From: Archaeoglobus sp. JdFR-22
GTDB lineage: Archaea; Halobacteriota; Archaeoglobi; Archaeoglobales; Archaeoglobaceae
Direction of reading: 5' to 3'
NCBI GenBank assembly: GCA_002010045.1
Contig: MTMJ01000022.1
Coordinates: 18,832 to 82,831, forward strand
Length of the DNA stretch: 64,000 bases
The number at the start of each line of letters is the position of its first letter. Position 1 is the stretch's first letter. Shown in pieces: positions 2,785 through 48,503 of the stretch. Below the pieces are notes generated by a model that ran no database searches, was not told the DNA's origin, and saw only the letters and a list, made by a program, of their open reading frames with translations. A program made the position numbers and the translations under genes.

Positions 2785-3978
2785 TTATGATACCTCAACA
2801 ATCCTTTCTTCTCTATACCCTGTAATAACCCTGAATTCTCCTCTTAACTCCCTGTCAAGTTCCTCATCCCCTGTATCCACCCGTAATTTATCAATTTTAC
2901 TCAATTTGTTGCGGGTAGAGATTACAATGATATTATCTCTACCAACCTCTCTTATAACTGCGGGACTTATCTGCTGGTTTCCTCTACCAAAAATAAATCC
3001 CTGACCTCCGATAGGAGTAACAATAATTTTTACCTTTTTACCTCGGATAATGGAAAGAATCTGCCCCTCATTAACGTCGCTTGCAATTATTTCACCATTC
3101 TGAGTAATGTCAACTCCGAGCAGGCTTTTATCAATTCCCATTATCTTACCCACTGCGTAAACGGTTGAACCCGGACACATGATGTAAATCTCTTCACCCA
3201 TCAATTCTGAGACATATTTTGCAATCTCATACTGGTTGTCCAATTCCTCAGCGGCAGATACACTTGCGATTTTTCTCGATTGAATGAATTCGGGGTCGTA
3301 AGGAGTTGGAGCATAACCATACAGCTTCGCTGTCAGCCTCCCCTTTCTGAATTCCTCTTCATCAATATCCATCACTTCAACCATACTCAAAGGTAAGCCC
3401 ATTCTGATGAATTTCTCAATTATTCTTACTCCAGCTTCAGGGTTAACAGCAAAAACTCCAGAGTACATCTTGACACCAGAGGGAATTCCCAGAACAGGCA
3501 CATTGTTCTTTAAGCCATTGAGAACATCTCTTGCAGTCCCATCTCCTCCGACAAACACAATGAGATTCACAGACATCTCAGAGAGCTCCGATGCCGCTCT
3601 GACAGTATCCTCAGAAGATGTTTTTGAGGATATTGAACCTACCACCTCTGGCTCAAATCCTGCCTCCACACATTCTTTCTCTCCCATCTCTCCCGGATAG
3701 GTTATCAGTCGAAAGGCATTTTTTAGATGGTGAAGTTTTTTTAAGGTCTCAACAGCCCTCAGAGGAGACACCGGTTTTGCACCCAGTCTGATTGCTTCTT
3801 CAAGTACTCCATCAGTCCCCTTCAATCCAACCCTTCCACCCATTCCTGCTATGGGATTAACAATTAAACCAATTTTCAACCTCTCTTTTGCTCTTGAGTA
3901 ATCTTGATATCCATGAGCAACTCCAAAACAACGCAGAGCTTTGAGGACTTCCTGAACATCATCTTCCATTTTCACCAC
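2785..3978 (-). CDS. ATP-NAD kinase-like protein (COG3199 type)
   Basis: 397 aa; NPIAGMGGRVGLKGTDG and VGGDGTARDV motifs typical of the NAD kinase / diacylglycerol kinase fold. Confidence 0.6.
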   Translation of the reverse strand: MVKMEDDVQEVLKALRCFGVAHGYQDYSRAKERLKIGLIVNPIAGMGGRVGLKGTDGVLEEAIRLGAKPVSPLRAVETLKKLHHLKNAFRLITYPGEMGEKECVEAGFEPEVVGSISSKTSSEDTVRAASELSEMSVNLIVFVGGDGTARDVLNGLKNNVPVLGIPSGVKMYSGVFAVNPEAGVRIIEKFIRMGLPLSMVEVMDIDEEEFRKGRLTAKLYGYAPTPYDPEFIQSRKIASVSAAEELDNQYEIAKYVSELMGEEIYIMCPGSTVYAVGKIMGIDKSLLGVDITQNGEIIASDVNEGQILSIIRGKKVKIIVTPIGGQGFIFGRGNQQISPAVIREVGRDNIIVISTRNKLSKIDKLRVDTGDEELDRELRGEFRVITGYREERIVEVS

Positions 3979-4087
3979 AGTACCTACAGCTTTACACCAC
4001 TATACCCATAATTATAGATTATACTTTTTTCTGGAGATTAAGCTAATAAACATTAACTTTTTAAAGTTTTAGGTTACTCAGTCATCC

Positions 4088-5479
4088 ATGACTACCAAGA
4101 TACTGTTGAGTGAAGAAGACATACCAAAGGAATGGTACAATATAAACCCCGACCTTCCGAAACCGTTGCCACCACCGATCGACCCCGGAACTCACGAACC
4201 CATTAAACCCGAAGTGCTTGAGAGAGTATTTGCAAAAGAACTGTTGAAACAGGAAATGAGTCAGGAACGCTGGATACCGATTCCCGAGGAGGTCAGAGAG
4301 ATTTACCAGATCTGGAGACCAACTCCGCTGATAAGGGCAAAGAGACTTGAAAAACTTCTGAAAACTCCGGCGAAGATTTACTACAAATATGAAGGTGTAA
4401 GCCCTCCCGGCTCCCACAAACCCAATACAGCAGTTCCACAGGCTTACTACAATGTTAAACAGGGTATTGAGAAGCTCACAACTGAGACCGGGGCTGGACA
4501 GTGGGGTAGCTCACTTGCTTTCGCTGGAAAGATGTTTGACATTGACATCACCGTTTACATGGTAAAGATCAGTTACGAGCAGAAGCCATACCGGAAGAGT
4601 ATGATGCATGCATGGGGGGCTGACGTCACTCCAAGCCCCAGCAACAGAACGAATTTTGGCAGAAATATGCTTAAAAAGGACCCTAACCATCCGGGAAGTC
4701 TTGGTATAGCAATCAGTGAGGCAATAGAGGATGCAGTAACACACGACAATGTGAGATACACTCTCGGAAGTGTTCTCGGACATGTACTTCTGCACCAGAC
4801 AGTTCAGGGACTTGAGGCAAAGAAGCAGTTTGAGATGATAGATGAATATCCTGATATAGTGGCAGGTTGTGTTGGAGGTGGAAGCAGCTTTTCTGGATTG
4901 AGTTTTCCATTCTATTATGACAAGATAACTGGAAAAGCACCTAAAGATGTAAAGTTTGTGGCAACAGAACCCACTTCATGTCCAACTCTGACCAAAGGAA
5001 TCTACACTTATGACTTTGGCGACACAGCAAACATGACACCTCTACTGCCGATGTATTCTCTTGGATCTGATTTTGTTCCAGCACCTATCCACGCAGGGGG
5101 GTTGAGATACCATGGAGATGCGCCCTCTCTCTGCCTTATGGTAAAAGAAGGTGTTATTGAGGCAAAGGCGTATGATCAGGTGTCTGTATTCGATGCCGCT
5201 GCAATGTTTGCAATGAGTGAAGGAACCATTCCGGCACCTGAGCCTTCTCACACAATACGGTATGTCATAGACGAAGCATTGAGATGCAAAGAATCCGGGG
5301 AAGAAAAGGTAATTCTGTTCAACCTCTGTGGACATGGACACTTTGACATGGGAGCATATGATGAGTACTTCGAGAACAGACTGAAGCCGTGGGAATATCC
5401 ACAGGAAAAGGTTGAAGAATCGATTAAAAAGCTACAGGAGAAATTTCCGTGGGTTAAAGACCTGCCATACTTAAAATAA
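4088..5479 (+). CDS. trpB2: TrpB2-type tryptophan synthase beta-like PLP enzyme
   Basis: 463 aa; N-terminal [15 protein letters not shown] signature of TrpB2 and a long PLP-fold body; stand-alone, with no trpA adjacent. Confidence 0.85.
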
Positions 5480-37999: not shown

Positions 38000-39385
38000 A
38001 TGATGGAATGGGATAGGTCAAAAGTTTACACAGAAGATAAATTAAGATTTCTCAAAGAGGATGAGACAATAATCGATTTAGCTTTAGTTATGCTAAAGAT
38101 ACTTTCAAAATACGAGTCAGAACAAAGTACTGGTGTAAAGGAAGAGAGGTATAAGAATATACACGCATGCTTAGAGACTCATTCAGATAAACTCGATGAG
38201 TTTGAAATGATGACAAAAGAACTGCATGGATATTTACAAAAAGCTAAAGAAAGTATCTACAGTAAGTCGTTGTATATCAATCAAGATACGAATATTGAGG
38301 AAGTTAAAAGCTATTTTATTAGAATTTTTAGAGAAATTGCACCATATATCAAAGAAGCGAGAAAAATTATTGAGAATTTGGAGGAATTAAATTCTGAATT
38401 ATTGTACTGCTTTTTTAACCATGAAACGTGGGGTTCGACTTGGTGTATCGAGTTATATATACCAAAAAAGATTTTACTTTCAAGCTCTGAAAAGGAGAGA
38501 CTTGAATTAGTCATAAATAGGATTCTTAACTTTAAGCTTTTTAATCAACCAAAGTTGATTGATTATGTAATATGGGATTATGGCAATGAGCTTTACTATA
38601 AATTGACGCCTGAAGAGTTCGACAATTACATCTTCAAAGATAAAGATTATTTTTCAATAAATTCAAAAATTTGTCATGAGATTTTCAATCATTTGAGAGA
38701 AGTCATAAAAAACCTGAGAGATGCTTGTAGAGTCGTTCTTCGGGAAATAGAAAGGTATAGAAGAGAAGTTGAAACATTTAGTGATGAAGTTTTTAAGAGA
38801 GTCCTAAACAATCTGATGGCTAAGCTAGAATCAAATGAGAACTACAATACAATTTTGCAAAAGAACATAATACTACGTAAAAAATGCATCACACTCATTA
38901 GACTTATTTACGATTACAAAAAAGAGGTAGAAGAAAGTAGATGGAAAGAAACAATGCATTTCAATGATGAGAATGATTTTAGGGATAATCTATTTAATTA
39001 CTTAAATCAGGTCAGAGGAGAAAAAATCTGGGTAATGAAGGAGACTCAAGTATCTCGTGGAAGAATTGATTTACTTATAAATAACGATATTGTTTTTGAG
39101 CTCAAACTCGAAAAAAATCCTGCTAAAATGAATAATTTCTCTGGTTTGTCTCAGATAAAAGAATACATGGCAAGTACCTCAAGTAAAATTGGGTTCTTTG
39201 TTATAATGGATATATCAAAGCAAACTAAGCCGTTAGCAAGCTTAGAAAACTACTTTAATGCGAAGGTTGAAAAAGGTGGTAGATGTGTATCTCATGAAGA
39301 AGACGAACATCCCATAGGTATTATAACTGTTCTAATCTTTGGCGGAGAGAGGGCAAGACCATCAGAATTGAGAGAATCGAGGTGA
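38000..39385 (+). CDS. uncharacterised 461-aa protein with C-terminal PD-(D/E)xK / RecB-like nuclease motifs
   Basis: GRIDLLINNDIVFELKLEK followed by SQIKEY (D...ELK...QxxxY). The helical N-terminal 320 aa has no recognisable family. The gene ends 4 nt before the methylase start. Confidence 0.5.
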   Translation: MMEWDRSKVYTEDKLRFLKEDETIIDLALVMLKILSKYESEQSTGVKEERYKNIHACLETHSDKLDEFEMMTKELHGYLQKAKESIYSKSLYINQDTNIEEVKSYFIRIFREIAPYIKEARKIIENLEELNSELLYCFFNHETWGSTWCIELYIPKKILLSSSEKERLELVINRILNFKLFNQPKLIDYVIWDYGNELYYKLTPEEFDNYIFKDKDYFSINSKICHEIFNHLREVIKNLRDACRVVLREIERYRREVETFSDEVFKRVLNNLMAKLESNENYNTILQKNIILRKKCITLIRLIYDYKKEVEESRWKETMHFNDENDFRDNLFNYLNQVRGEKIWVMKETQVSRGRIDLLINNDIVFELKLEKNPAKMNNFSGLSQIKEYMASTSSKIGFFVIMDISKQTKPLASLENYFNAKVEKGGRCVSHEEDEHPIGIITVLIFGGERARPSELRESR

Positions 39386-39389
39386 TAAA

Positions 39390-42161
39390 ATGAAGGAATT
39401 TCCAATCAAACGTTCATTCATAGAAGAAACTTTTCCCGTAAAAGAAGTAAGCGAGGAGTCAGCGAGAGAGAAGAACATAAGGCACGGACACATCTCAACT
39501 CTCCATATCTGGTGGGCGAGAAGACCTTTAGCCTCATCAAGAGCAACAGCCTATGCAGCTTTAATTCCTGTCCCGGATAGCATTGAGGAAATTGAAAAGA
39601 AGAAGAATTTCATCGCTGAGCTTTGCAAATGGGAGAACTCTTTAAATCCAGCATATATTGAGAAACCAAGGAAAGATATCAGGGATGCGTTAGGTTACAC
39701 GCCAAGAGTTTTAGACCCGTTTGCTGGTGGTGGTGCAATTCCCTTAGAAGCTCTAAGGCTTGGTTGTGAAACTTATGCTTCCGATTACAACCCTGTTGCT
39801 GTCCTGATTCTGAAGGCTGTTCTTGAATATCCTCAGAAATATGGAAAGCGAAGAGGGATTGAAGATTTTGGGAATAAAGAAGAGAGTAGAGAGAATTATG
39901 ACCTCGTAGCAGATGTGAAGAAGTGGGGAGAGTGGGTTTTGAATGAAGCTAAGAAGGAGATTGGAAGATTTTATCCCGCTGAGGAAGACGGCTCAATTCC
40001 AGTTGGCTATATCTGGGCAAGAACAATTCCATGCCAGAATCCTTCTTGCAATGCTGAGATTCCTCTGATGAGGCAGTTCTGGTTAGCAAAGAAGAGTAAC
40101 AAGAAAGTGGCGTTGTATCCTTATGTTGAGGGTAAAGAAGTGAAGTTTAAGGTGGTTGGAAATGGCTATGAAGAGATGCCCGATAACTTTGACCCCTCCA
40201 AAGGGACTGTTAAGGGTGCAATAGCAACCTGCTTGATTTGCGGTTCAACAGTAGATGCAAACACGACAAGAAGGTTGTTTCAGGAAGGTAAGGCTGGACA
40301 GAGAATGGTAGCTGTTGTTTTACATAACAAAAAGAAGAGAGGTAAGTTTTATCGGATTGCAGATGAGAATGATGTGGAAGTTTTCAAGCAGGCTGAGAAA
40401 TATTTGCAAAGAAAGGTTGAGGAGCTGAGAGAAAAATGGAATATTGAGCCGATTCCTGATGAGCCTTTACCTACCCCAGATATGCAAGGATTCAACAGTA
40501 AAGGTGATTTGTTTTGGAATTTTGCTCCAATTGTAGTTTATGGAATGAAAAAGTGGGGGGATTTGTTTAATTCAAGGCAGAAGCTTTCTTTAATCACTTT
40601 TGTGGATAAGGTCAGGGAAGCTTACTTCAGGATGGTTGAAGTTTACGATGAGGAGTATGCAAGAAGTGTTGTTACGTATTTGGGTTTGCTTTTTGATAAA
40701 GTTGTTAGTAAATCAAATTCCCTTGCAAGATGGAATAATATTCCCGAAAAAATTGAGTACATCTTTTCACGGCAAGCCATGTCTATGTTATGGGATTATG
40801 TTGAAAGTAATATTTTCGGGAAATCTGCTGGTAGTTGGCAAGAATATAAAGAATACACTTTGAAGATGATTGATAGTACCTCACAAAGCTCTATAAAGTC
40901 CGCAATACCAATTCAAGCATCAGCTACCGAACTCCCTTTCCCAAACAATTACTTCGATGCAGTTTTCACAGACCCACCATATTACGACAACGTACCTTAT
41001 TCAGACCTATCTGAATTCTTTTATGTATGGCTTAAAAGAACGATTGGTGAACATTATCCTGATTTATTTTCTACTCCTCTAACTCCAAAGTCAAAAGAAA
41101 TCATTGCAAGCTTACCCCTCCTAAGAGGGATGTCAAAAGATAAAGCAGAAAAATTGATTAAAACTACTAAACCTCAAAAATATTTCGAAAATATGCTCAA
41201 AAAATCATTTCAGGAAATCTACAGAATTTTAAAGCCCAACGGCATCGTAGTAATCGTCTACGCCCACAAAACAGCATCCGGCTGGGAAACGCTCATCAAC
41301 TCTTTACTTGACTCGGGCTTGGTCATAACAGCCTCATGGCCAATAAACACGGAGATGAAAGCAAGATTGAGAGCAAAAGAGTCAGCAGCATTGGCATCAT
41401 CAATCTACATTGTGGCAAGAAAAATGCAACGCAGTGAAACAGGCTGGTTCAACGAAGTAAAAGAAGAAATCAAAAATCATCTCTACAAAAAGCTTGAAAG
41501 ATTATGGAAAGAGGGAATAAGCGGTGCTGACTTCTTCATATCGGCAATAGGTTCAGCAATTGAAGTATTCGGGAAATATGAGAAAGTTATGGATTATGAA
41601 GGAAACATAATCAGGGCTGACAGATTGCTGGATTATGTGAGAGAGATTGTGATGGACTACACTGTGAGACAAATCCTCCACAACGGTATAGCTGCTGAAT
41701 TGAGCCCATTAACACGATTCTACATTCTATACAGGTGGAGTTACCAGAATGCAAAGGTTCACTTTGATGAAGCTCGCAAATTAGCTCAGAGTGTTGGTGT
41801 TGATTTGGAAAAGGAGTGGAATAAGGGATTCATTGAGAAGCAGAAGGAGTTTATCTATCTTTTAGCCCCCAATGAGAGGAAACTTGATGAACTGAAAAGT
41901 ACTGAACTGATAGACGTTCTGCACAAAGTTCTGCAGCTTTGGGAGAAAGGAAGAAGAGAAGAAATAACTGAGACACTGCAAGAGACTGGCTTCATGAGGG
42001 ACAGCTTTTTCAGGGTTGCTCAGGCAATTTCTGAGTGCTTATCCATCGATAGCAAGGAGAAGAAGTTACTGGATGGATTTCTGACGGGGAAGGAGAAGAT
42101 GATTAGTGAGGCGAGGGCGAAGGATACGAAGCTTATGGATTTTATTGGTGATGAGGAATGA
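39390..42161 (+). CDS. DUF1156/COG1743-type Zn-ribbon DNA methyltransferase (N6-A or N4-C class)
   Basis: 923 aa; STLHIWWARRPL, DPFAGGGAIPLEA (SAM motif I), CQNPSC...CLICGS zinc ribbon, FTDPPYYDN (motif IV). Confidence 0.85.
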   Translation: MKEFPIKRSFIEETFPVKEVSEESAREKNIRHGHISTLHIWWARRPLASSRATAYAALIPVPDSIEEIEKKKNFIAELCKWENSLNPAYIEKPRKDIRDALGYTPRVLDPFAGGGAIPLEALRLGCETYASDYNPVAVLILKAVLEYPQKYGKRRGIEDFGNKEESRENYDLVADVKKWGEWVLNEAKKEIGRFYPAEEDGSIPVGYIWARTIPCQNPSCNAEIPLMRQFWLAKKSNKKVALYPYVEGKEVKFKVVGNGYEEMPDNFDPSKGTVKGAIATCLICGSTVDANTTRRLFQEGKAGQRMVAVVLHNKKKRGKFYRIADENDVEVFKQAEKYLQRKVEELREKWNIEPIPDEPLPTPDMQGFNSKGDLFWNFAPIVVYGMKKWGDLFNSRQKLSLITFVDKVREAYFRMVEVYDEEYARSVVTYLGLLFDKVVSKSNSLARWNNIPEKIEYIFSRQAMSMLWDYVESNIFGKSAGSWQEYKEYTLKMIDSTSQSSIKSAIPIQASATELPFPNNYFDAVFTDPPYYDNVPYSDLSEFFYVWLKRTIGEHYPDLFSTPLTPKSKEIIASLPLLRGMSKDKAEKLIKTTKPQKYFENMLKKSFQEIYRILKPNGIVVIVYAHKTASGWETLINSLLDSGLVITASWPINTEMKARLRAKESAALASSIYIVARKMQRSETGWFNEVKEEIKNHLYKKLERLWKEGISGADFFISAIGSAIEVFGKYEKVMDYEGNIIRADRLLDYVREIVMDYTVRQILHNGIAAELSPLTRFYILYRWSYQNAKVHFDEARKLAQSVGVDLEKEWNKGFIEKQKEFIYLLAPNERKLDELKSTELIDVLHKVLQLWEKGRREEITETLQETGFMRDSFFRVAQAISECLSIDSKEKKLLDGFLTGKEKMISEARAKDTKLMDFIGDEE

Positions 42162-43196
42162 GAATAGTTGTGCCAGATGTGGGGCATGGAAATTGTGTGA
42201 GTATTTTCAATGATGAGGCATCACTAATAGTAGATTGTGGTGCCGAAAACAATGATAAGGTTGAGAGTTTCTTTAATTTTGTTGAACTAAAGCTAAAAAA
42301 TTCGAAGAAAAGAGAACTGATTATAACGCATTACCATTTTGACCACTATAACCTTTTAAGCAAATTACCTCCAAGTTATTTTGAGAGAGTTTACTTACCT
42401 AAATTACCCCTGAAAGAGAGACGTCAGAGGCAATACGTGAATTTTTGGCTTTATCTATTGTTACAAGGTTCAAGAACTATCCCTTAATTCCTGAAATCTG
42501 GAGAGTTGCAAAAATAATTGTGCCTTAGCTAAGGGTGATAATTTAAGCACTATAAACAGAGAATGGGAAGTTTTATGGCCAGATTACAGTGCTATTGATA
42601 GAAAAAACAAAAGACGCATTAAGAACCTTCGAAAGGAGATTGAAGAAATAAAAGGGATGTTAGATGAGAAGTCTCTGGAAGAATTTGAGTATTGGTATGA
42701 AAAACTTAGCCATGATAATGAGAATTTCGAGTTTGGAGGTTGGATTAAATCCGTAAACGAGAATCAAACAGATCCAAGAATTATAGAATCGTTGGGGAAA
42801 TTAGAAAGAATATTTAGGCCTTTAGCCAACAGAGCATCACTTGTTACAAGAGAGATCCAAGGCGAATTTCTCTTTACAGGAGATGTAGATGGAACTGTGC
42901 TAAATAAACATCTCAATTTTAGTGATCTTGAGTATTTCTTAGTGGAGGCGCCTCACCATGGAGGATTTTATGGCGAGGTTTTCAATAACGTAGAAACAGA
43001 GATATTAGTAATTTCAAGAAAATCTACTTACCGACCAAGAGCAGAATTTTTCCGTGATGTAATTTGGAGAATTCTAATGGATGCTGGAAAACTCGGAACC
43101 TGTATTTTAGAGAAAGGAGTGAAAAAGGGGCGAATCCACGCGATAAACATGAGGAGTGATAAAGCATTTGCCTACTTCTTAATATACTTAATTTAA
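42158..43196 (+). pseudogene. metallo-beta-lactamase-fold hydrolase, disrupted by at least two frameshifts
   Basis: The N-terminal piece has THYHFDHY (HxHxDH) and the C-terminal piece has EAPHHGG. Between 42415 and 42540 the reading shifts through three frames (...YLPKLP / ERETSEAIREFLALSIVTRFKNYPLIPEIWRVAK / NCALAKGDNLSTINREWEVLWP...). The start overlaps the methylase stop (ATGA). Confidence 0.65.
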
Positions 43197-43246
43197 GATC
43201 TCAGTACTCAACATGAGAAAACACAAGATAAGGCATACAGTAGTAG

Positions 43247-44404
43247 TTAGCTCAAAAAGTAATCCAGAGTCCAGTTCAGCGTCTTTCTTGCAGCTTCAAC
43301 TTTTTTAATTTCCTCAGCAACATATCTTTTTCCTGAAACGTAATCCATAACGTTATCGTTCTCAATTTGTTCTCTCAAAATCATTGTTTCTATTGCTATT
43401 TGCTCAGAATTAAGTAGTAGTTGAGCTTTAATCTTCTTGTCGATGGATTCGGTAAAAACGCTCATTGGGATGGAAGAATCTTTAGGATATATCCTTTTTA
43501 GCTCCTTTTGCCCTTCAACTCTGAAATAGCCATAAGTCGCTCTGCTAAATAACCTGAACAAGTTTTTAGCCCTCTCTCGAATTCTTGCCCAGTACTCATC
43601 ATCATTTTTCGGACCTCTAGGACGGATATGTCTGTTACCAAGGCTGTCAACACCAAAACCGTAGGAAAGAATGTCTTTAGCTGGTATTACAGGCTCGTTT
43701 CTTAAAAGTCTTCCCATATTGACATTGAAAGCATGAACGAAAGGAGTAACCTCTTCTTTATAAATTATACGTTGTATCTGTTGCAAGTTCTGAATAAGAC
43801 TTGTAGGCGTCCTTCCCCCAAAATCTATACAGAATGATTGCACTCCTCTGCTAAGATAAAATTCAATGAGTGGTTTTATGAATTCAAATGGTATGTCAAA
43901 TTGAATACATCCCATGACAGGCTTATCACCGAAGGATTCCGCCTTTTCCACAAAATTACTCAGAAATTCCATATGCTTTTCAAAAGCAGCATAATCAGCA
44001 TTCTTTAATTCCTGAAAAGCTGGTACAACAATAAAGTCTGAATACGATTTTTCAGTGGCAATCAGGAATTCCAGCTCAGTATCGGATGGTTTCTCATCTT
44101 TGTAGCTTGCAAGAAAAATATTCACATCCTTTTTATTTGATTTCTTGATTAAACTATTAAACCAATAATTTAATTCTCTTTGAGCTCCATTGTTTTTTAT
44201 TAAATCGCTAAGGTAACCTTTATCGAAGGTTTTGTATATTTCATTTACCTTGGGCTCAGTGTACCTTAGGCTCACCTTAGGCAAAAACTTTGAAAGATCA
44301 AAGGCTTTCACAGGAGTTTTTACTCTCTTTTTACCAACTTTCAATTCGCCAAATCTGAAGAAACTCCTTTTATCAAATGCAATCAGGTTATATTGTGCTT
44401 CCAC
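43247..44404 (-). CDS. uncharacterised 385-aa protein (alpha/beta-barrel-like; weak TGT/DpdA-like motif pattern)
   Basis: Long clean ORF on the opposite strand. Motifs GELKVGKKRVKTPVKAF, CIDFGGRTP, VHAFNVNMG and GFGVDSLGN occur in an order and spacing reminiscent of tRNA-guanine transglycosylase barrels. No Zn motif. Confidence 0.45.
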   Translation of the reverse strand: MEAQYNLIAFDKRSFFRFGELKVGKKRVKTPVKAFDLSKFLPKVSLRYTEPKVNEIYKTFDKGYLSDLIKNNGAQRELNYWFNSLIKKSNKKDVNIFLASYKDEKPSDTELEFLIATEKSYSDFIVVPAFQELKNADYAAFEKHMEFLSNFVEKAESFGDKPVMGCIQFDIPFEFIKPLIEFYLSRGVQSFCIDFGGRTPTSLIQNLQQIQRIIYKEEVTPFVHAFNVNMGRLLRNEPVIPAKDILSYGFGVDSLGNRHIRPRGPKNDDEYWARIRERAKNLFRLFSRATYGYFRVEGQKELKRIYPKDSSIPMSVFTESIDKKIKAQLLLNSEQIAIETMILREQIENDNVMDYVSGKRYVAEEIKKVEAARKTLNWTLDYFLS

Positions 44405-44454
44405 AAAAAAATTATTAAAAAACTTTTTTATAATTGTTTTGGTGATGCAGAAAT

Positions 44455-45060
44455 ATGGAAATTAACGCAGACAAAATCAAAATGAAATTAAGAGAGATTG
44501 ATCCAATCAAAGCTTATATTTTGCTCCTTCTGAGAGAAAAAAATTTTGAAGCCGTGAAGGGTAAGCTATGGTTACAGAAAGAGATGTTTATTATACTTTC
44601 AAATTTAGATAAACTCAAAAACTTCTTGGATTTTGAACCGTACTTCTTTGGACCTCACAGCGAAAGTGTTGATGTAGCACTTGAGCAGTTAGAAAAATCT
44701 GGCCTTGTGAGATTTGAGGGAAACAAGATTTCGCTTACTCACGAGGGGGAGGGGCTTGCAAATGTCCTCGCAAGTAAGGCAAGCAGTGAAAACATTGAGC
44801 TTGTAAGGGAAATCAAAGAGCTATTGAATGACTTATCAAAAGATGAACTGCTGGCATTTGTATATTTCACTTTTCCAGAAATGACCAAAGAATCTTTAGA
44901 AATCGAAAATATCAAGAGGAGAAGAAAGAAGCTTGCACTAAAACTCTACAGAAAAGGAAAGATAAGCCTTGCTAAAGCAGCCGAAATTTCTGGATTGAGT
45001 ATAGAAGAATTTATGAGTATATTAAGAAAAGAGCAGATTGGAGTCCAGATAAATCCATAG
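44455..45060 (+). CDS. antitoxin-like protein: wHTH/Panacea-like N-terminal domain fused to UPF0175 C-terminal HTH
   Basis: 201 aa; the C-terminal KLYRKGKISLAKAAEISGLSIEEFMSILRKEQI is typical of UPF0175; the N-terminal KGKLWLQKEMFIIL...FGPHSESV is reminiscent of SocA/DUF4065. Confidence 0.5.
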   Translation: MEINADKIKMKLREIDPIKAYILLLLREKNFEAVKGKLWLQKEMFIILSNLDKLKNFLDFEPYFFGPHSESVDVALEQLEKSGLVRFEGNKISLTHEGEGLANVLASKASSENIELVREIKELLNDLSKDELLAFVYFTFPEMTKESLEIENIKRRRKKLALKLYRKGKISLAKAAEISGLSIEEFMSILRKEQIGVQINP

Positions 45061-45068
45061 GTGATGTA

Positions 45069-45542
45069 TTGAAGGCTATTCTAGATTCATCAGTACTAAT
45101 AGCCTTTTTTACGGAACTTAAAGACCCTAAATATTTGCTATCACTGACTTATTTTGGTTATGAACTCCATATACCAAATGGTGTCGCTATTGAACTAAAA
45201 AGAGGGATTACATTCCAGCAGTTATCACCATATCTGAGCAATTTTAATCAACTATCAGAAGTTGACCAAATTGATTTGTATCCTTTTAAAAAAAGATTTC
45301 CTTACTTAGCACAGGGAGAACTCGAAGTTCTCTTCTGGGGACTAAGGTTTAAAAGGGGCAAAGAGCAATACATATGCGTGCTTGATGATAAAAAAGCAAG
45401 AAACGCAGCCGAAAAACTTCGGTTAAATTACACTGGAACTATAGGCATTTTGAATCTTCTCGAAGAATTGGACTTCTTAGCTTCCAGAGAGAGAAAAAGC
45501 ATTATTGAGGAACTCAGAAAAGCAGGTTTCAGAGTGCCATAG
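45069..45542 (+). CDS. DUF3368-type PIN-like toxin
   Basis: 157 aa; ILDSSVLIAF, QGELEVL, VLDDKKARNAAEKL, GTIGILN; TTG start 9 nt after the upstream stop. Confidence 0.65.
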   Translation: MKAILDSSVLIAFFTELKDPKYLLSLTYFGYELHIPNGVAIELKRGITFQQLSPYLSNFNQLSEVDQIDLYPFKKRFPYLAQGELEVLFWGLRFKRGKEQYICVLDDKKARNAAEKLRLNYTGTIGILNLLEELDFLASRERKSIIEELRKAGFRVP

Positions 45543-45615
45543 AGATTCAAATAACAGTAGCACTAAGAAAAGTTTTTCTAAGAATTTATATACTACTATA
45601 TAAAAACAAAGTAAA

Positions 45616-48228
45616 GTGATATGTATGAGGCCATTCCACATGATTGCTCTACCTCATAAAGACATACTCGAAGGCAGACTTACAATGGACGTTTTTGCTG
45701 CTGACTTATGGAATGTTTTTAAAGGTGAGGCAGTTGATGATTACAAAAATCCTGATTCTTTCTTTCAAAAAACCTATCCAACCTTTGGATTGAGAAACTT
45801 GCTGAAAATAGCAGGAAAGAGGTTGAGAAGTGAGGGTGGAGACTCTGTCATCCAGATTCAGACTCCTTTTGGTGGAGGTAAGACTCATTCTCTGATCGCA
45901 CTGTATCATGCCTTCTCAACTGGAAAGTACGTTGAGGATGCAATTAAAGCAAATGTTGTCGTAATTGTTGGAACTGCTATCAGCCCAAAGGAGGAGAACG
46001 GGAAGATAACGGGAACAATCTGGGGAGAAATTGAAAGACAGCTTGAAGGTGAAGTAAAAGAGCTTGACCTGTCTGTTTCACCCGGTAGAGATAAGCTTGA
46101 AGAATTGTTCAGAAAACATCAACCACTCCTTATTCTGATGGATGAAGTTCTTCAATATACTACCAAAGCTGCTGGGATAAAAGTTGGAGACTCAAATCTT
46201 GCCTCGCAAACAATGGCTTTTATGCAGGAATTAACAGAGTGTGTTAAGTCCTTGAAGAAAACTCTCCTCGTTCTAACACTACCATCAAGCATTATTGAGC
46301 ACTACGACGAGAGTGCGGAGAAGCTGTTTGTTCAATTGCAGAAGGTTTCGGGAAGAATGGAGAAAATCTACACTCCAGTTGCTGGTGAGGAAATTTACGA
46401 GGTTGTGAGGAGAAGACTTTTCAGGGAAATCGATAATGAAAGAGCAAGAGAAGTTGTTGAAGAATTCGTGAATTATTACGAGAGAGAAGGAATAATTCAG
46501 GAGAAAGCAGAATACAGAGATAAAATGATGAAGAGCTACCCTTTCCATCCTGAAGTTATTGATGTCCTTCACAACAGATGGGGAAGCATTCCAACTTTCC
46601 AGAGAACAAGAGGTGTTTTGAGAATACTTTCTCTTGCAATCTACAGACTAAAGGATTCATCCATACCACTCATACGCCCATGTGATTTGGATTTAACATA
46701 CAGTGAGCTTGCTGAAGAGCTCATCAAACATATAGGGAGAGAATATGAGAGCGTTTTGTCAGCAGATATAACAGGAAGTAATGCTAATGCAAAGAAAGTT
46801 GATAAATCAACTGGAGTTACATACCAAGGCTTAAATCTTGGAACGAAGCTTGCTACTGCCATCTTCCTCTACTCATTCTCAGGTGGAGAGAAAGGAGCAA
46901 GTTTGGGTGACCTCAAACTTGCATGTTCTGACACAAACGTACCATCAAGCGTGATAACTGATGTGATTGAAGGATTGAAGAGCAATCTTTTCTACCTTCA
47001 ATCTGACATTACAAGATACTTTTTCACTTCCCAGCCAAACTTAAACAGCATTCTTGTGACAAGAATGTCCGAAATAGATAACGGAGTGATAAAAGCCGCA
47101 ACCAAATCATTGACTGAGAGGTTCTCAGGTAAGGATATTCCTGTTTACATCTGGCCTTCAAAACCAAAAGATATTCCGGATTCAGAGGAATTGAAGCTCA
47201 TAATACTGCCTGAAAATGATGGAAAGTTGTGCAAGAATATCCTTGAGAATTACGGTGAGAATCCGAGGGTTAACAAGAATACCCTATTTTTCCTGTGCCC
47301 GATGGAGTCTGAGAGATTCTCCTTTGAGAACTGGCTCAGAAAACTGCTCGCATGGAGAAGAATAGATGAAGATAAATCGCTTAATCTTACCGAACTGCAA
47401 CAGAAAGAAGTAAAGAAGAATTTGGGAGAGATGAGCAAAGCTGAAAGAATTCAGCTGAGGAGTTTTTACAGGCTTGTTTATGTTCCATCAAAAGACGGAT
47501 TCAGAGAGATCGATTTGGGAATTCCTGTTTTTGGTAAAACAGAGACATTGAGCAGGGAAGTAATTAACAGACTAAAAGCTGAAGGTGAAATTGTTGAAAA
47601 ACTCTCTCCATTACTGATTTCTGAGAAATACCTGCGAGATAAAGACTATGTTGAGACGGGCAGGCTCTTCAAAGCCATGCTCTCAACCCCGGGAGAACCG
47701 AGAGTTACTAAAAGTAAGTTCATCAGTTCAATCAGAGATGGCGTTAAACAGGGTATTTTTGGCTCTGGAATTCTCAGGGATGGCAGTGTGGAATGTTTGA
47801 AGTTTAAAGAGAATACAGAAGTCCTGCTGAGCGATTATGAAGTGATAATAAGAAAGGAGATTTGTGAGAAGCCCAAAGCGGAAGAAGGAAGGGTTGAAGA
47901 GGAATTAGAAGGATATGAGGAAGTAGAAGAGGAAGAGAAAGAAACTGGTATTCTGGTAGAAGATGAGGATAAGGAGAAACCAAAGCCTCCTGTGGTAATA
48001 CCCAAATTCAAGAAGGTAAAGCTCTCTGTTGAAGTTCCGAGAGGTAAGTTCTCAGAATTTTACACTGGAGTTATCCTGCCCATTGAAAAATCCTTTGGTG
48101 AAGCTGAAATAAAAATTGAAATTGAGGCTAAGAATGGTGAGATTCCAAAGAGTGAGTATGAAAATAAGGTAAAAGAAACACTACTTCAGATTAATGCAAA
48201 ATTTAAGGAAGAAGAGTTGGAGGAGTGA
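45616..48228 (+). CDS. DUF499/COG1483-type P-loop ATPase
   Basis: 870 aa; [10 protein letters not shown]-terminus, [16 protein letters not shown] (Walker A), PLLILMDEV (Walker B), acidic E-rich linker before a C-terminal domain. Confidence 0.8.
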
Positions 48229-48230
48229 TT

Positions 48231-48344
48231 ATGTCTTACTGGCTCTGTATAACAACGGAAGAGAACTGGGATGTTATAAGAAAAAAGAATGTATGGGGTG
48301 TTCAGGAGAAACATCGCAATACGATTGGCCTCATTAAAAGGTGA
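48231..48344 (+). pseudogene. truncated EVE/PUA-like domain gene fragment
   Basis: 37 codons, [37 protein letters not shown], matching the N-terminus typical of archaeal EVE-domain proteins. It is then terminated, and the downstream frames are degraded. Confidence 0.45.
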
Positions 48345-48503
48345 GATTAAGTTATGAAGAACTTCCCCTGTAGAAAATCAAAGCCATATTTTCAGTTACT
48401 TCATCCATACAATGTTTAAGAGAAAGTTTTTTTGTTTTTTGAGAGGGCGAAAATTATATATTCAAATATGACACTATGTCACATAGTAACAAAAGGTGAA
48501 ATC

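Follow-up and report, generated by a model that had tools for sequence, protein, structure and literature searches.

Whether a nuclease gene lying directly upstream of a DNA methylase gene, in the same orientation, is the methylase's restriction partner is the question raised by a 64,000-nucleotide (nt) stretch of DNA from Archaeoglobus sp. JdFR-22 (assembly GCA_002010045.1, contig MTMJ01000022.1, positions 18,832 to 82,831 of the forward strand; the whole stretch is called the window here, and positions are counted from its first letter). The gene, ORF461 (38000 to 39385, + strand), is an intact open reading frame (ORF) of 461 amino acids (aa) with two modules, an N-terminal helical domain and a C-terminal PD-(D/E)xK nuclease domain, and it ends 4 nt before the ATG of the methylase gene, as an initial annotation of the sequence had described. 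That annotation took ORF461 for a missing restriction or effector component coupled to the methylase, or for a specificity subunit. Our analysis leads to a different reading, to which we give a probability of about 65%: ORF461 is an autonomous, horizontally acquired sensor-nuclease gene, carried as cargo in an insertion hotspot between hmaA and the methylase gene hmaB, and is not the restriction subunit of the Hma system in which it lies.

Results

The methylase gene belongs to an Hma locus, which was recognized with the PADLOC models for HmaA (E value of 1e-206), HmaB (2e-135), and HmaC (5e-135). HmaA (33330 to 36614, + strand) joins an SNF2 helicase to a C-terminal NOV_C PD-(D/E)xK nuclease domain; the mechanically called ORF, 33153 to 36614, overlaps a tRNA gene, and the likely start is at 33330. 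HmaB (39390 to 42161, + strand; 923 aa) is a DUF1156 N6-adenine DNA methyltransferase, and HmaC (45616 to 48228, + strand) is a DUF499 ATPase. The triad was named by Payne et al. in 2021 (PMC8565338) and was re-described by Rakesh and Krishnan in 2026 as a "Type-1 BREX-related system" (PMC12839542). Liu et al. (2024) showed experimentally that the NOV_C PD-(D/E)xK domain of HmaA is the effector and that hmaA by itself protected against T4 (PMC11232893). In the HmaA of the window the NOV_C domain is intact (E value of 1.2e-23), and because the system already carries this effector nuclease, no restriction component is missing that ORF461 would have to supply.

A search in the reverse direction, by tblastn over 80 metagenome loci whose HmaB is 45 to 78% identical to that of the window, recovered an ORF461 homolog at only one of them (L029), and that copy is truncated. 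From the side of ORF461 the result was similar: the available sequence in six independent contexts of full-length homologs held no detectable DUF1156, DUF499, SNF2, or other methylase genes, the ORFs and gene calls scanned within ∼8 to 10 kb of the homologs on L007/L009, L008/L010, and L012 held no methyltransferase domain, and no neighbor gene is conserved across the full-length homolog contexts. A co-occurrence with DUF1156 methylases, which the initial annotation had put forward as the check on its proposal, is thus absent from all six contexts, and the proposal that ORF461 supplies a missing component to the methylase is not supported. The homologs lie instead among other kinds of genes: P0002 (L003) is found with a Zn-ribbon gene, uncharacterized genes, and a transposase; P0003 (L004) and P0004 (L006) are found with convergent uncharacterized genes; P0006, from a Hadarchaeota metagenome-assembled genome (MAG; L007/L009), is flanked by two tyrosine integrases and has a HEPN gene upstream; P0007/P0008, from a Thermoplasmatales MAG (L008/L010), has DDE transposases alongside; and P0009 (L012) has a transposase nearby. 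The initial annotation had allowed that homologs scattered away from both methylases and defense islands would speak against it; the scatter is real with respect to methylases, but the homologs do lie in mobile or defense-type regions. Their survival without a detected methylase argues for a nuclease that regulates itself.

The same survey shows what occupies the position of ORF461 at other Hma loci. L019 is collinear with the window over hmaA, hmaB, and hmaC at 68 to 72% nucleotide identity and has empty sites at both junctions, with a 312-nt spacer where the window has positions 36611 to 39379 and 147 nt where it has 42113 to 45623. L096, which has the closest hmaB (79.6% nucleotide identity), shows the gene order AbrB-PIN-MNT-HEPN-hmaB with MNT and HEPN intact, and its intact HEPN toxin gene stands in the exact position of ORF461. 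Across the survey, the hmaA-hmaB distance is 102 nt or less at 40 of 60 loci and inserts of 0.3 to 3.2 kb separate the genes at the other 20, while hmaB and hmaC are 200 nt or less apart at 51 of 73 loci and are separated by inserts at 22. The inserted genes encode Schlafen-type proteins, OLD-type ATPase pairs (AbiLi/AriA/HEC-01-like), Fic with an ATPase, a serine protease, and toxin-antitoxin modules, and the other inserts similar in size to ORF461 (446 to 462 aa) are Schlafen-type proteins. An hmmsearch of 81 genes inserted at other Hma junctions with the full-length and C-terminal ORF461 profiles found no relatives. A trio of genes from the hmaB-hmaC junction of the window (a 385-aa gene, a UPF0175-like gene, and a PIN gene; 43247 to 45542) was found together, at 33 to 48% identity, at the hmaA-hmaB junction of L056 (7654 to 9977), which indicates that cassettes move between Hma junctions. 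Insertions of this kind were reported in 66.5% of hma loci by Liu et al., who called the region a defense-gene insertion hotspot (PMC11232893). Base composition also separates the inserts from the core: the Hma core genes have a G+C content (GC) of 0.40 to 0.41, like the flanking tRNA-synthetase genes, whereas all inserted genes fall at 0.32 to 0.38. ORF461, at 0.317 against a window mean of 0.400 (standard deviation, 0.028), is the most A+T-rich 1.4 kb of the window, and this composition marks it as foreign to the Hma core.

At L029, the single related locus with a copy, a 141-aa ORF directly upstream of hmaB corresponds to residues 319 to 457 of ORF461 (78% identity) and begins where ORF461 has M319; it lacks the first 318 residues, and the hmaB of this locus is split over four frames. 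Positions 38930 to 42112 of the window are collinear with L029 at 70.8% nucleotide identity, and the ORF part (72 to 78%) is no more similar than hmaB. ORF461 is under strong purifying selection, with a dN/dS of 0.066 over the 141 codons that can be compared with the L029 copy, the one partial ortholog. Another 141-aa protein consisting of the nuclease domain only (P0052) was found in a separate sample. L029 also has an OLD-type ABC ATPase pair (AbiLi/PDC-M38/AriA-like) between hmaB and hmaC; the L029 features described here were noted at its positions 1 to 620 and 3337 to 5138.

The ORF461 family is very rare and mostly archaeal. A word-indexed search of 5.8 billion proteins returned only five relatives, and a profile search with HMMER, run exhaustively over 1.84 billion cluster representatives, returned 50 matches, about 10 of them full length; no member was found in 2.9 million viral contigs. 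A word-index search with the C-terminal alignment returned two proteins only and added nothing. The precomputed Pfam match to PF28130 (DUF8371) is weak for ORF461 and strong for the homolog P0007, so that the family already has a Pfam entry, though one with no function attached; the literature searched does not mention DUF8371, and an NCBIfam scan of ORF461 gave only a subthreshold match to GxxExxY. The description of ORF461 as an orphan therefore holds as to rarity but not as to the absence of relatives, given the PF28130 match and the N-terminal relatives described below. The hit list of the HMMER search divides the protein into its two modules, each of which recurs in proteins that lack the other.

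The C-terminal module comprises the PD-(D/E)xK nuclease core (residues 319 to 461; 38954 to 39382, + strand), which is delimited by alignment, an AlphaFold2 (AF2) model, Foldseek, and Pfam. An AF2 model of residues 269 to 461, built from a 24-sequence alignment, has a pLDDT of 93, a pTM of 0.89, and an alpha-beta-beta-beta-alpha-beta topology: alpha1 (residues 324 to 337) carries E324, beta1 (345 to 351) carries E348, beta2 (354 to 360) carries D357, beta3 (364 to 371) carries E367 and K369, alpha2 (383 to 392) carries Q385 and Y389, and beta4 (397 to 404) carries G398 and D404. Among 24 relatives of 23 to 47% identity, E324, E367, and K369 never vary, and position 357 holds either D or E throughout; the predicted catalytic codons are those of E324 (38969 to 38971), D357 (39068 to 39070), E367 (39098 to 39100), and K369 (39104 to 39106), all on the + strand. 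The motifs GRIDLLI, VFELKLEK, and SQIKEY, from which the nuclease had initially been recognized, occur in the order given, and of the residues proposed for mutagenesis E367 and K369 were numbered correctly, while the aspartate is D357 rather than D356 in the 461-aa numbering. A structure check by AF2 and Foldseek agrees with a restriction-endonuclease-like fold: the top dozen PDB matches, weak as they are, are almost all PD-(D/E)xK nucleases (DdmD, McrC, Cas4 SSO0001, SfsA, I-Bth0305I, NucS, and AF1548). Searched as a profile against PDB sequences, the C-terminal alignment gave no meaningful match. The fold class of the C-terminal domain is secure; the subfamily is not, and the RecB/Cas4 part of the earlier assignment did not hold. 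The Q of the QxxxY motif (Q385) is present in 22 of the 24 relatives and the Y (Y389) in 13, with V or T in its place in the closest homologs; the alignment has no conserved Cys and thus no Fe-S cysteine cluster; and neither ORF461 nor any of the 24 relatives matched PDDEXK_1 (PF12705) or Cas_Cas4 (PF01930) at E values up to 1, or the DUF4263 (PF14082)/SduA model. The nearest Pfam family is PDDEXK_3, matched by 10 of the 24 relatives (best E value, 1.8e-6); ORF461 itself scores below the cutoffs for PDDEXK_3 (19.5 to 20.8 bits; cutoff, 22) and PDDEXK_9 (22.5 bits; cutoff, 25.5).

The best annotated match of ORF461 is to the effector of another defense system. Residues 233 to 458 (38696 to 39373, + strand), comprising a helical neck and the nuclease core, align to positions 425 to 653 of the 655-position PADLOC LmuA model PDLC03853 (E value of 1.8e-13). 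This model represents a genuine Lamassu effector, because P0042, a full-length LmuA that aligns over the entire model (3.6e-131), is encoded in an LmuC-LmuB-LmuA operon: its gene follows LmuC (1.9e-68) and LmuB (4.6e-177) on a conjugative element. The nuclease domain is also shared by Olokun OloB models, which are touched by some of the relatives. Residues ∼270 to 461 recur as the C terminus of proteins of 365 to 965 aa with unrelated N termini (P0013 to P0016, P0021, and P0026), and judging from these alignments and models the module is predicted to be a metal-dependent PD-(D/E)xK DNA nuclease.

The N-terminal module was correctly described as helical and A+T-rich in the initial annotation, which recognized no match to it. 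Its first ∼320 residues are all-helical in the AF2 model (pLDDT mostly 80 to 97, falling below 50 in a WGST loop), with a coding GC of 0.306, and the HMMER profile search did recover significant relatives (E values of 1e-9 to 3e-5). Profile matches and the AF2 model place the core of the domain at residues ∼50 to 280 (38147 to 38839, + strand), and this region recurs N-terminally in front of Schlafen/AlbA_2 C termini (P0031, P0035, and P0050) or a nitrilase-like C terminus (P0033). Two conserved motifs, F.Y..WGST (residues 138 to 147, in the low-confidence loop) and R(D/N)..R (residues 240 to 244), are common to the Schlafen and nitrilase fusions. Nothing in Pfam, NCBIfam, PDB, or BFVD matched the domain significantly. 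A Foldseek search of PDB and BFVD with the full-length model gave only weak PD-(D/E)xK matches for the C terminus and, for the N-terminal domain, helical noise to which no fold could be assigned. The way in which the domain is shuffled among effectors suggests that it is probably a sensor, autoinhibitory, or oligomerization module. Relatives of one or the other domain have defense-type neighbors: P0013 has pAgo and a kinase/ORC-like gene nearby, P0050 adjoins PDDEXK_1 and pAgo genes, and the nitrilase fusion P0033 (L014, 295 to 4617) begins 3 nt past hsdS in a type I R-M operon, with a 280-aa uncharacterized gene and an HNH gene after it. P0033 is thus another case of the N-terminal domain family inside an R-M-like operon.

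The full-length reading frame of ORF461 is the same in three assemblies. In two other assemblies that encode the identical protein, gene callers place its start at the second ATG (38003; 460 aa), which is probably the true start. Chance stop codons should be frequent in sequence so A+T-rich, and the 1,386-nt open frame is therefore not accidental. TATA-like A+T-rich elements, TTATAAAA and TTTAAATA, lie 10 to 25 nt 5′ of the ATGs (37974 to 37993, + strand) and are a possible archaeal promoter of a near-leaderless ORF461 transcript; a similar AAAATTTAAAT box is found 5′ of the tRNA gene, at 33079 to 33095 (repeat D12). At the other end, the ORF461 stop codon (TGA, 39383 to 39385) lies inside the GAGGTGA Shine-Dalgarno site of hmaB, so that the site and the hmaB ATG (39390) together span 39379 to 39392 (+ strand) with a 4-nt gap between the genes. 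This Shine-Dalgarno site is hmaB's own, as had been proposed, because the start signal AGGTGAT.AAATG is kept in L019, which has no ORF461. Since ORF461 abuts the ribosome-binding site of hmaB, the two genes are probably co-transcribed from the A+T-rich promoter of ORF461; judged from gene geometry, such co-transcription is plausible, a lower grade than the "almost certainly" first given to it.

ORF461 is the last gene of the block inserted at the hmaA-hmaB junction (36611 to 39379, + strand), in which it follows an AbrB/MazE antitoxin gene (36828 to 37262), a PIN toxin gene (37228 to 37638), and an MNT nucleotidyltransferase gene, all on the + strand. The MNT gene is split by a frameshift into ORFs of 41 aa (37660 to 37785) and 68 aa (37754 to 37960), and the same split is present in two other assemblies. 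MNT is the antitoxin of HEPN-MNT pairs, which are abundant in thermophilic archaea; no HEPN partner for the split gene is present in the window. We considered ORF461 as a substitute toxin for the upstream MNT antitoxin and rejected this, the MNT gene being frameshifted in all three assemblies; we know of no evidence that MNT enzymes regulate PD-(D/E)xK proteins. The ORF461 gene of the window, preceded by the MNT pseudogene, stands where L096 has HEPN, and a HEPN gene precedes the Hadarchaeota homolog as well (L007/L009, 7226 to 7684); this proximity could be a coincidence or could reflect preferred insertion at HEPN-MNT modules.

The block at the hmaB-hmaC junction (42113 to 45623) begins with a metallo-beta-lactamase (MBL)-fold gene in pieces of 109 and 179 aa (42158 to 42487 and 42657 to 43196, + strand), which overlaps the hmaB stop codon in an ATGA and is probably a pseudogene. 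Its first piece weakly matches the LmuA hydrolase-type PADLOC model PDLC03854 (E value of 7e-4). The trio shared with L056 follows: the 385-aa gene, with no assigned function (43247 to 44404, minus strand), the 201-aa UPF0175/DarG-like gene (44455 to 45060), and the PIN gene (45069 to 45542). A tRNA gene is a classic island integration site, and the Hma island begins right at one (33137 to 33223, + strand), directly 5′ of hmaA. ARAGORN calls it tRNA-Leu(TAA); the letters themselves, with ∼13 additional nt between the anticodon loop CTGTTAA and the 3′ anticodon stem, suggest an intron-containing archaeal tRNA-Asn(GTT). This apparent intron and the archaeal homologs of ORF461 (in the Hadarchaeota and Thermoplasmatales MAGs) fit an archaeal source of the window. 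No convincing att-like direct repeat matching the 3′ end of the tRNA was found, nor any other convincing long direct repeat at the borders of the island or of the insert. Directly 3′ of the hmaC stop codon, a 38-codon ORF (48231 to 48347, + strand) looks by eye like a piece from the N terminus of an EVE/PUA-like domain protein; work cited in PMC12839542 associates EVE domains with DUF499 systems.

Discussion

Our results suggest that ORF461 is a self-contained defense gene that came to lie beside hmaB by insertion. Homology to the Lamassu and Olokun effectors, together with analogy to the architecture of Shedu, points to nuclease activity, N-terminal regulation, and a role in defense. In the mechanism we propose, the N-terminal domain would hold the nuclease silent until an infection-associated cue appears, and the released nuclease would then cut invader DNA or host DNA, the latter resulting in abortive infection. 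ORF461 would work beside Hma in no more than an auxiliary or back-up role, with the NOV_C domain of HmaA as Hma's own effector, and it would need no methylase.

Several points weigh against this reading. Most of the homolog contigs are short, and distant partners might escape notice; the Foldseek matches of the nuclease domain have weak E values (0.017 or higher) and TM scores of 0.36 or lower; and the N-terminal domain has neither a structural nor a sequence match to any known sensor. In addition, the ORF part of L029 has diverged in step with hmaB, so the adjacency of ORF461 and hmaB is old and has survived in two lineages; a functional coupling of the two is therefore conceivable. Given a junction of only 4 nt and the likely co-transcription, the ORF461 promoter may by now be needed for hmaB expression.

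That adjacency is the starting point for an alternative in which ORF461 has been integrated into this Hma sublineage as a recruited back-up nuclease whose activity is set off by HmaB or HmaC, or coordinated with them, for instance through docking of its N-terminal domain. The junction and its probable co-transcription, the matching divergence of two loci (the window and L029) in which the genes adjoin, and the strong purifying selection on ORF461 would all be expected of such a recruit, and auxiliary or back-up PD-(D/E)xK nucleases with variable N-terminal sensors have been proposed as recurrent inside BREX-related loci (PMC12839542). The wider distribution makes recruitment unlikely, however: 78 of the 80 related loci lack ORF461, the site is empty in L019 and taken by HEPN in L096, the two closest loci, and the remaining full-length homologs all lie without Hma genes. 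The L029 copy itself lacks the N-terminal domain and stands next to an apparently frameshifted hmaB, and GC sets ORF461 apart from the Hma core. The same distribution bears on the classical pairing, in which ORF461 would be a methylation-sensitive restriction endonuclease or a specificity subunit and HmaB its cognate methylase. Gene order, shared orientation, and the PD-(D/E)xK fold are what one would look for in such a pair, but we consider it very improbable: homologs without a methylase detected within 8 to 10 kb would be lethal if they encoded an unregulated restriction enzyme, relatives of HmaB are almost never preceded by an ORF461 gene, HmaA already supplies a nuclease (PMC11232893), and ORF461 has no detected target-recognition or HsdS-like domain.

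The mobile surroundings of the homologs, with integrases on both sides (L007/L009) or transposases close by (L003, L008/L010, and L012), allow a further alternative, that the nuclease serves its carrier elements in recombination, processing of replication intermediates, or maintenance rather than host defense. PD-(D/E)xK domains are common in recombination enzymes (Hjc, NucS among the Foldseek matches). Nevertheless, the family had no match in the viral contigs, its N-terminal domain occurs in Schlafen and nitrilase effector fusions typical of defense and not of recombination, its nuclease domain has its nearest relatives in the LmuA and OloB defense effectors, and its domain relatives have pAgo, type I R-M, and OLD-type ATPase genes as neighbors, so that we judge a housekeeping role of this sort to be quite unlikely. 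ORF461 might finally be a decaying passenger, either a nonfunctional remnant or a catalytically dead DNA-binding protein, in line with its unusual composition and with the pseudogenization of neighboring cargo (the frameshifted MNT and the split MBL-fold gene). Its full-length frame, intact and identical in three assemblies, its invariant catalytic residues, and its dN/dS leave this hardly credible.

If ORF461 is indeed cargo, the workings of Hma systems are unchanged, with their nuclease on HmaA, and the locus becomes a worked example of hotspots at the two Hma junctions (hmaA-hmaB and hmaB-hmaC) of archaeal and thermophile lineages, where cassettes are swapped (HEPN versus ORF461) and one and the same trio appears at different junctions. 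It would also serve as a warning for annotation that a nuclease next to a methylase need not mean an R-M pair. Auxiliary PD-(D/E)xK nucleases in BREX-related loci and hotspots at hma junctions have already been published (PMC12839542 and PMC11232893). What is new is the ORF461 family itself, very rare and uncharacterized with ∼10 full-length members among 1.84 billion clustered proteins, and an N-terminal domain common to three effector types, a candidate new sensor module. It is possible, though we hold the idea tentatively and think it somewhat doubtful, that this ∼270-residue domain is an undescribed infection-sensing module wired to at least three effectors (a PD-(D/E)xK nuclease, a Schlafen/AlbA_2 RNase, and a nitrilase-fold enzyme), and that the proteins carrying it are new single-protein immune sensors of archaea and bacteria with a preference for R-M-like operons (Hma here and type I R-M for P0033) and pAgo neighborhoods. 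More radically, the N-terminal domain may dock onto the resident methylase/ATPase complex, so that the host R-M-like system acts as its sensor.

Comparison with known systems

Measured against the Hma core, ORF461 does not show the conserved co-occurrence with HmaA, HmaB, and HmaC that membership would entail (1 of 80 loci, and none of the 6 other homolog contexts), and the initial annotation was right to place it outside the minimal triad. It differs likewise from a type II R-M pair in that its nuclease is not always accompanied by a cognate methylase. The likeness to RecB and Cas4 consists in the motif order E, D, ExK, and Q...Y (the last on the helix after beta3) and in weak Foldseek matches to Cas4 SSO0001 and AdnAB; unlike these proteins, ORF461 has no hidden Markov model match and no Cys cluster, and its structural similarity to them is no better than that to McrC, DdmD, or NucS.

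The relation to Shedu (SduA, DUF4263) is one of architecture only: each is a single polypeptide in which an exchangeable N-terminal module precedes a PD-(D/E)xK nuclease at the C terminus. BREX and BREX-related loci have been described as containing embedded Shedu-type nucleases (PMC12839542). ORF461 differs from them in lacking a DUF4263/SduA match and in having an N-terminal domain of a distinct family, and no Shedu structure appeared among its top 50 Foldseek matches in PDB. With the LmuA subtype of Lamassu that PDLC03853 represents there is homology proper, over the C-terminal ∼225 residues that make up the helical neck and the PD-(D/E)xK core, and in both cases a larger defense protein ends in the nuclease as its effector. 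The match to LmuA is only partial, however, with the N-terminal ∼230 residues of ORF461 being unrelated to it. No LmuB match was found among 10 neighboring window proteins and no SMC-type gene in the homolog contexts, and the two weak matches to LmuC models (E values of ∼1e-3) both fall on the 201-aa UPF0175/DarG-like gene at 44455 to 45060; ORF461 is not a Lamassu system.

Within the locus, HmaA also contributes a PD-(D/E)xK nuclease, albeit of a different family (NOV_C versus PDDEXK_3/LmuA-like). The excerpts of PMC11232893 and PMC12839542 consulted here do not name the ORF461 family among Hma cargo genes, but its site, between hmaA and hmaB, is the insertion hotspot that they describe. NOV_C is fused to an SNF2 helicase and is kept across Hma loci, whereas ORF461 is a sporadic insert.

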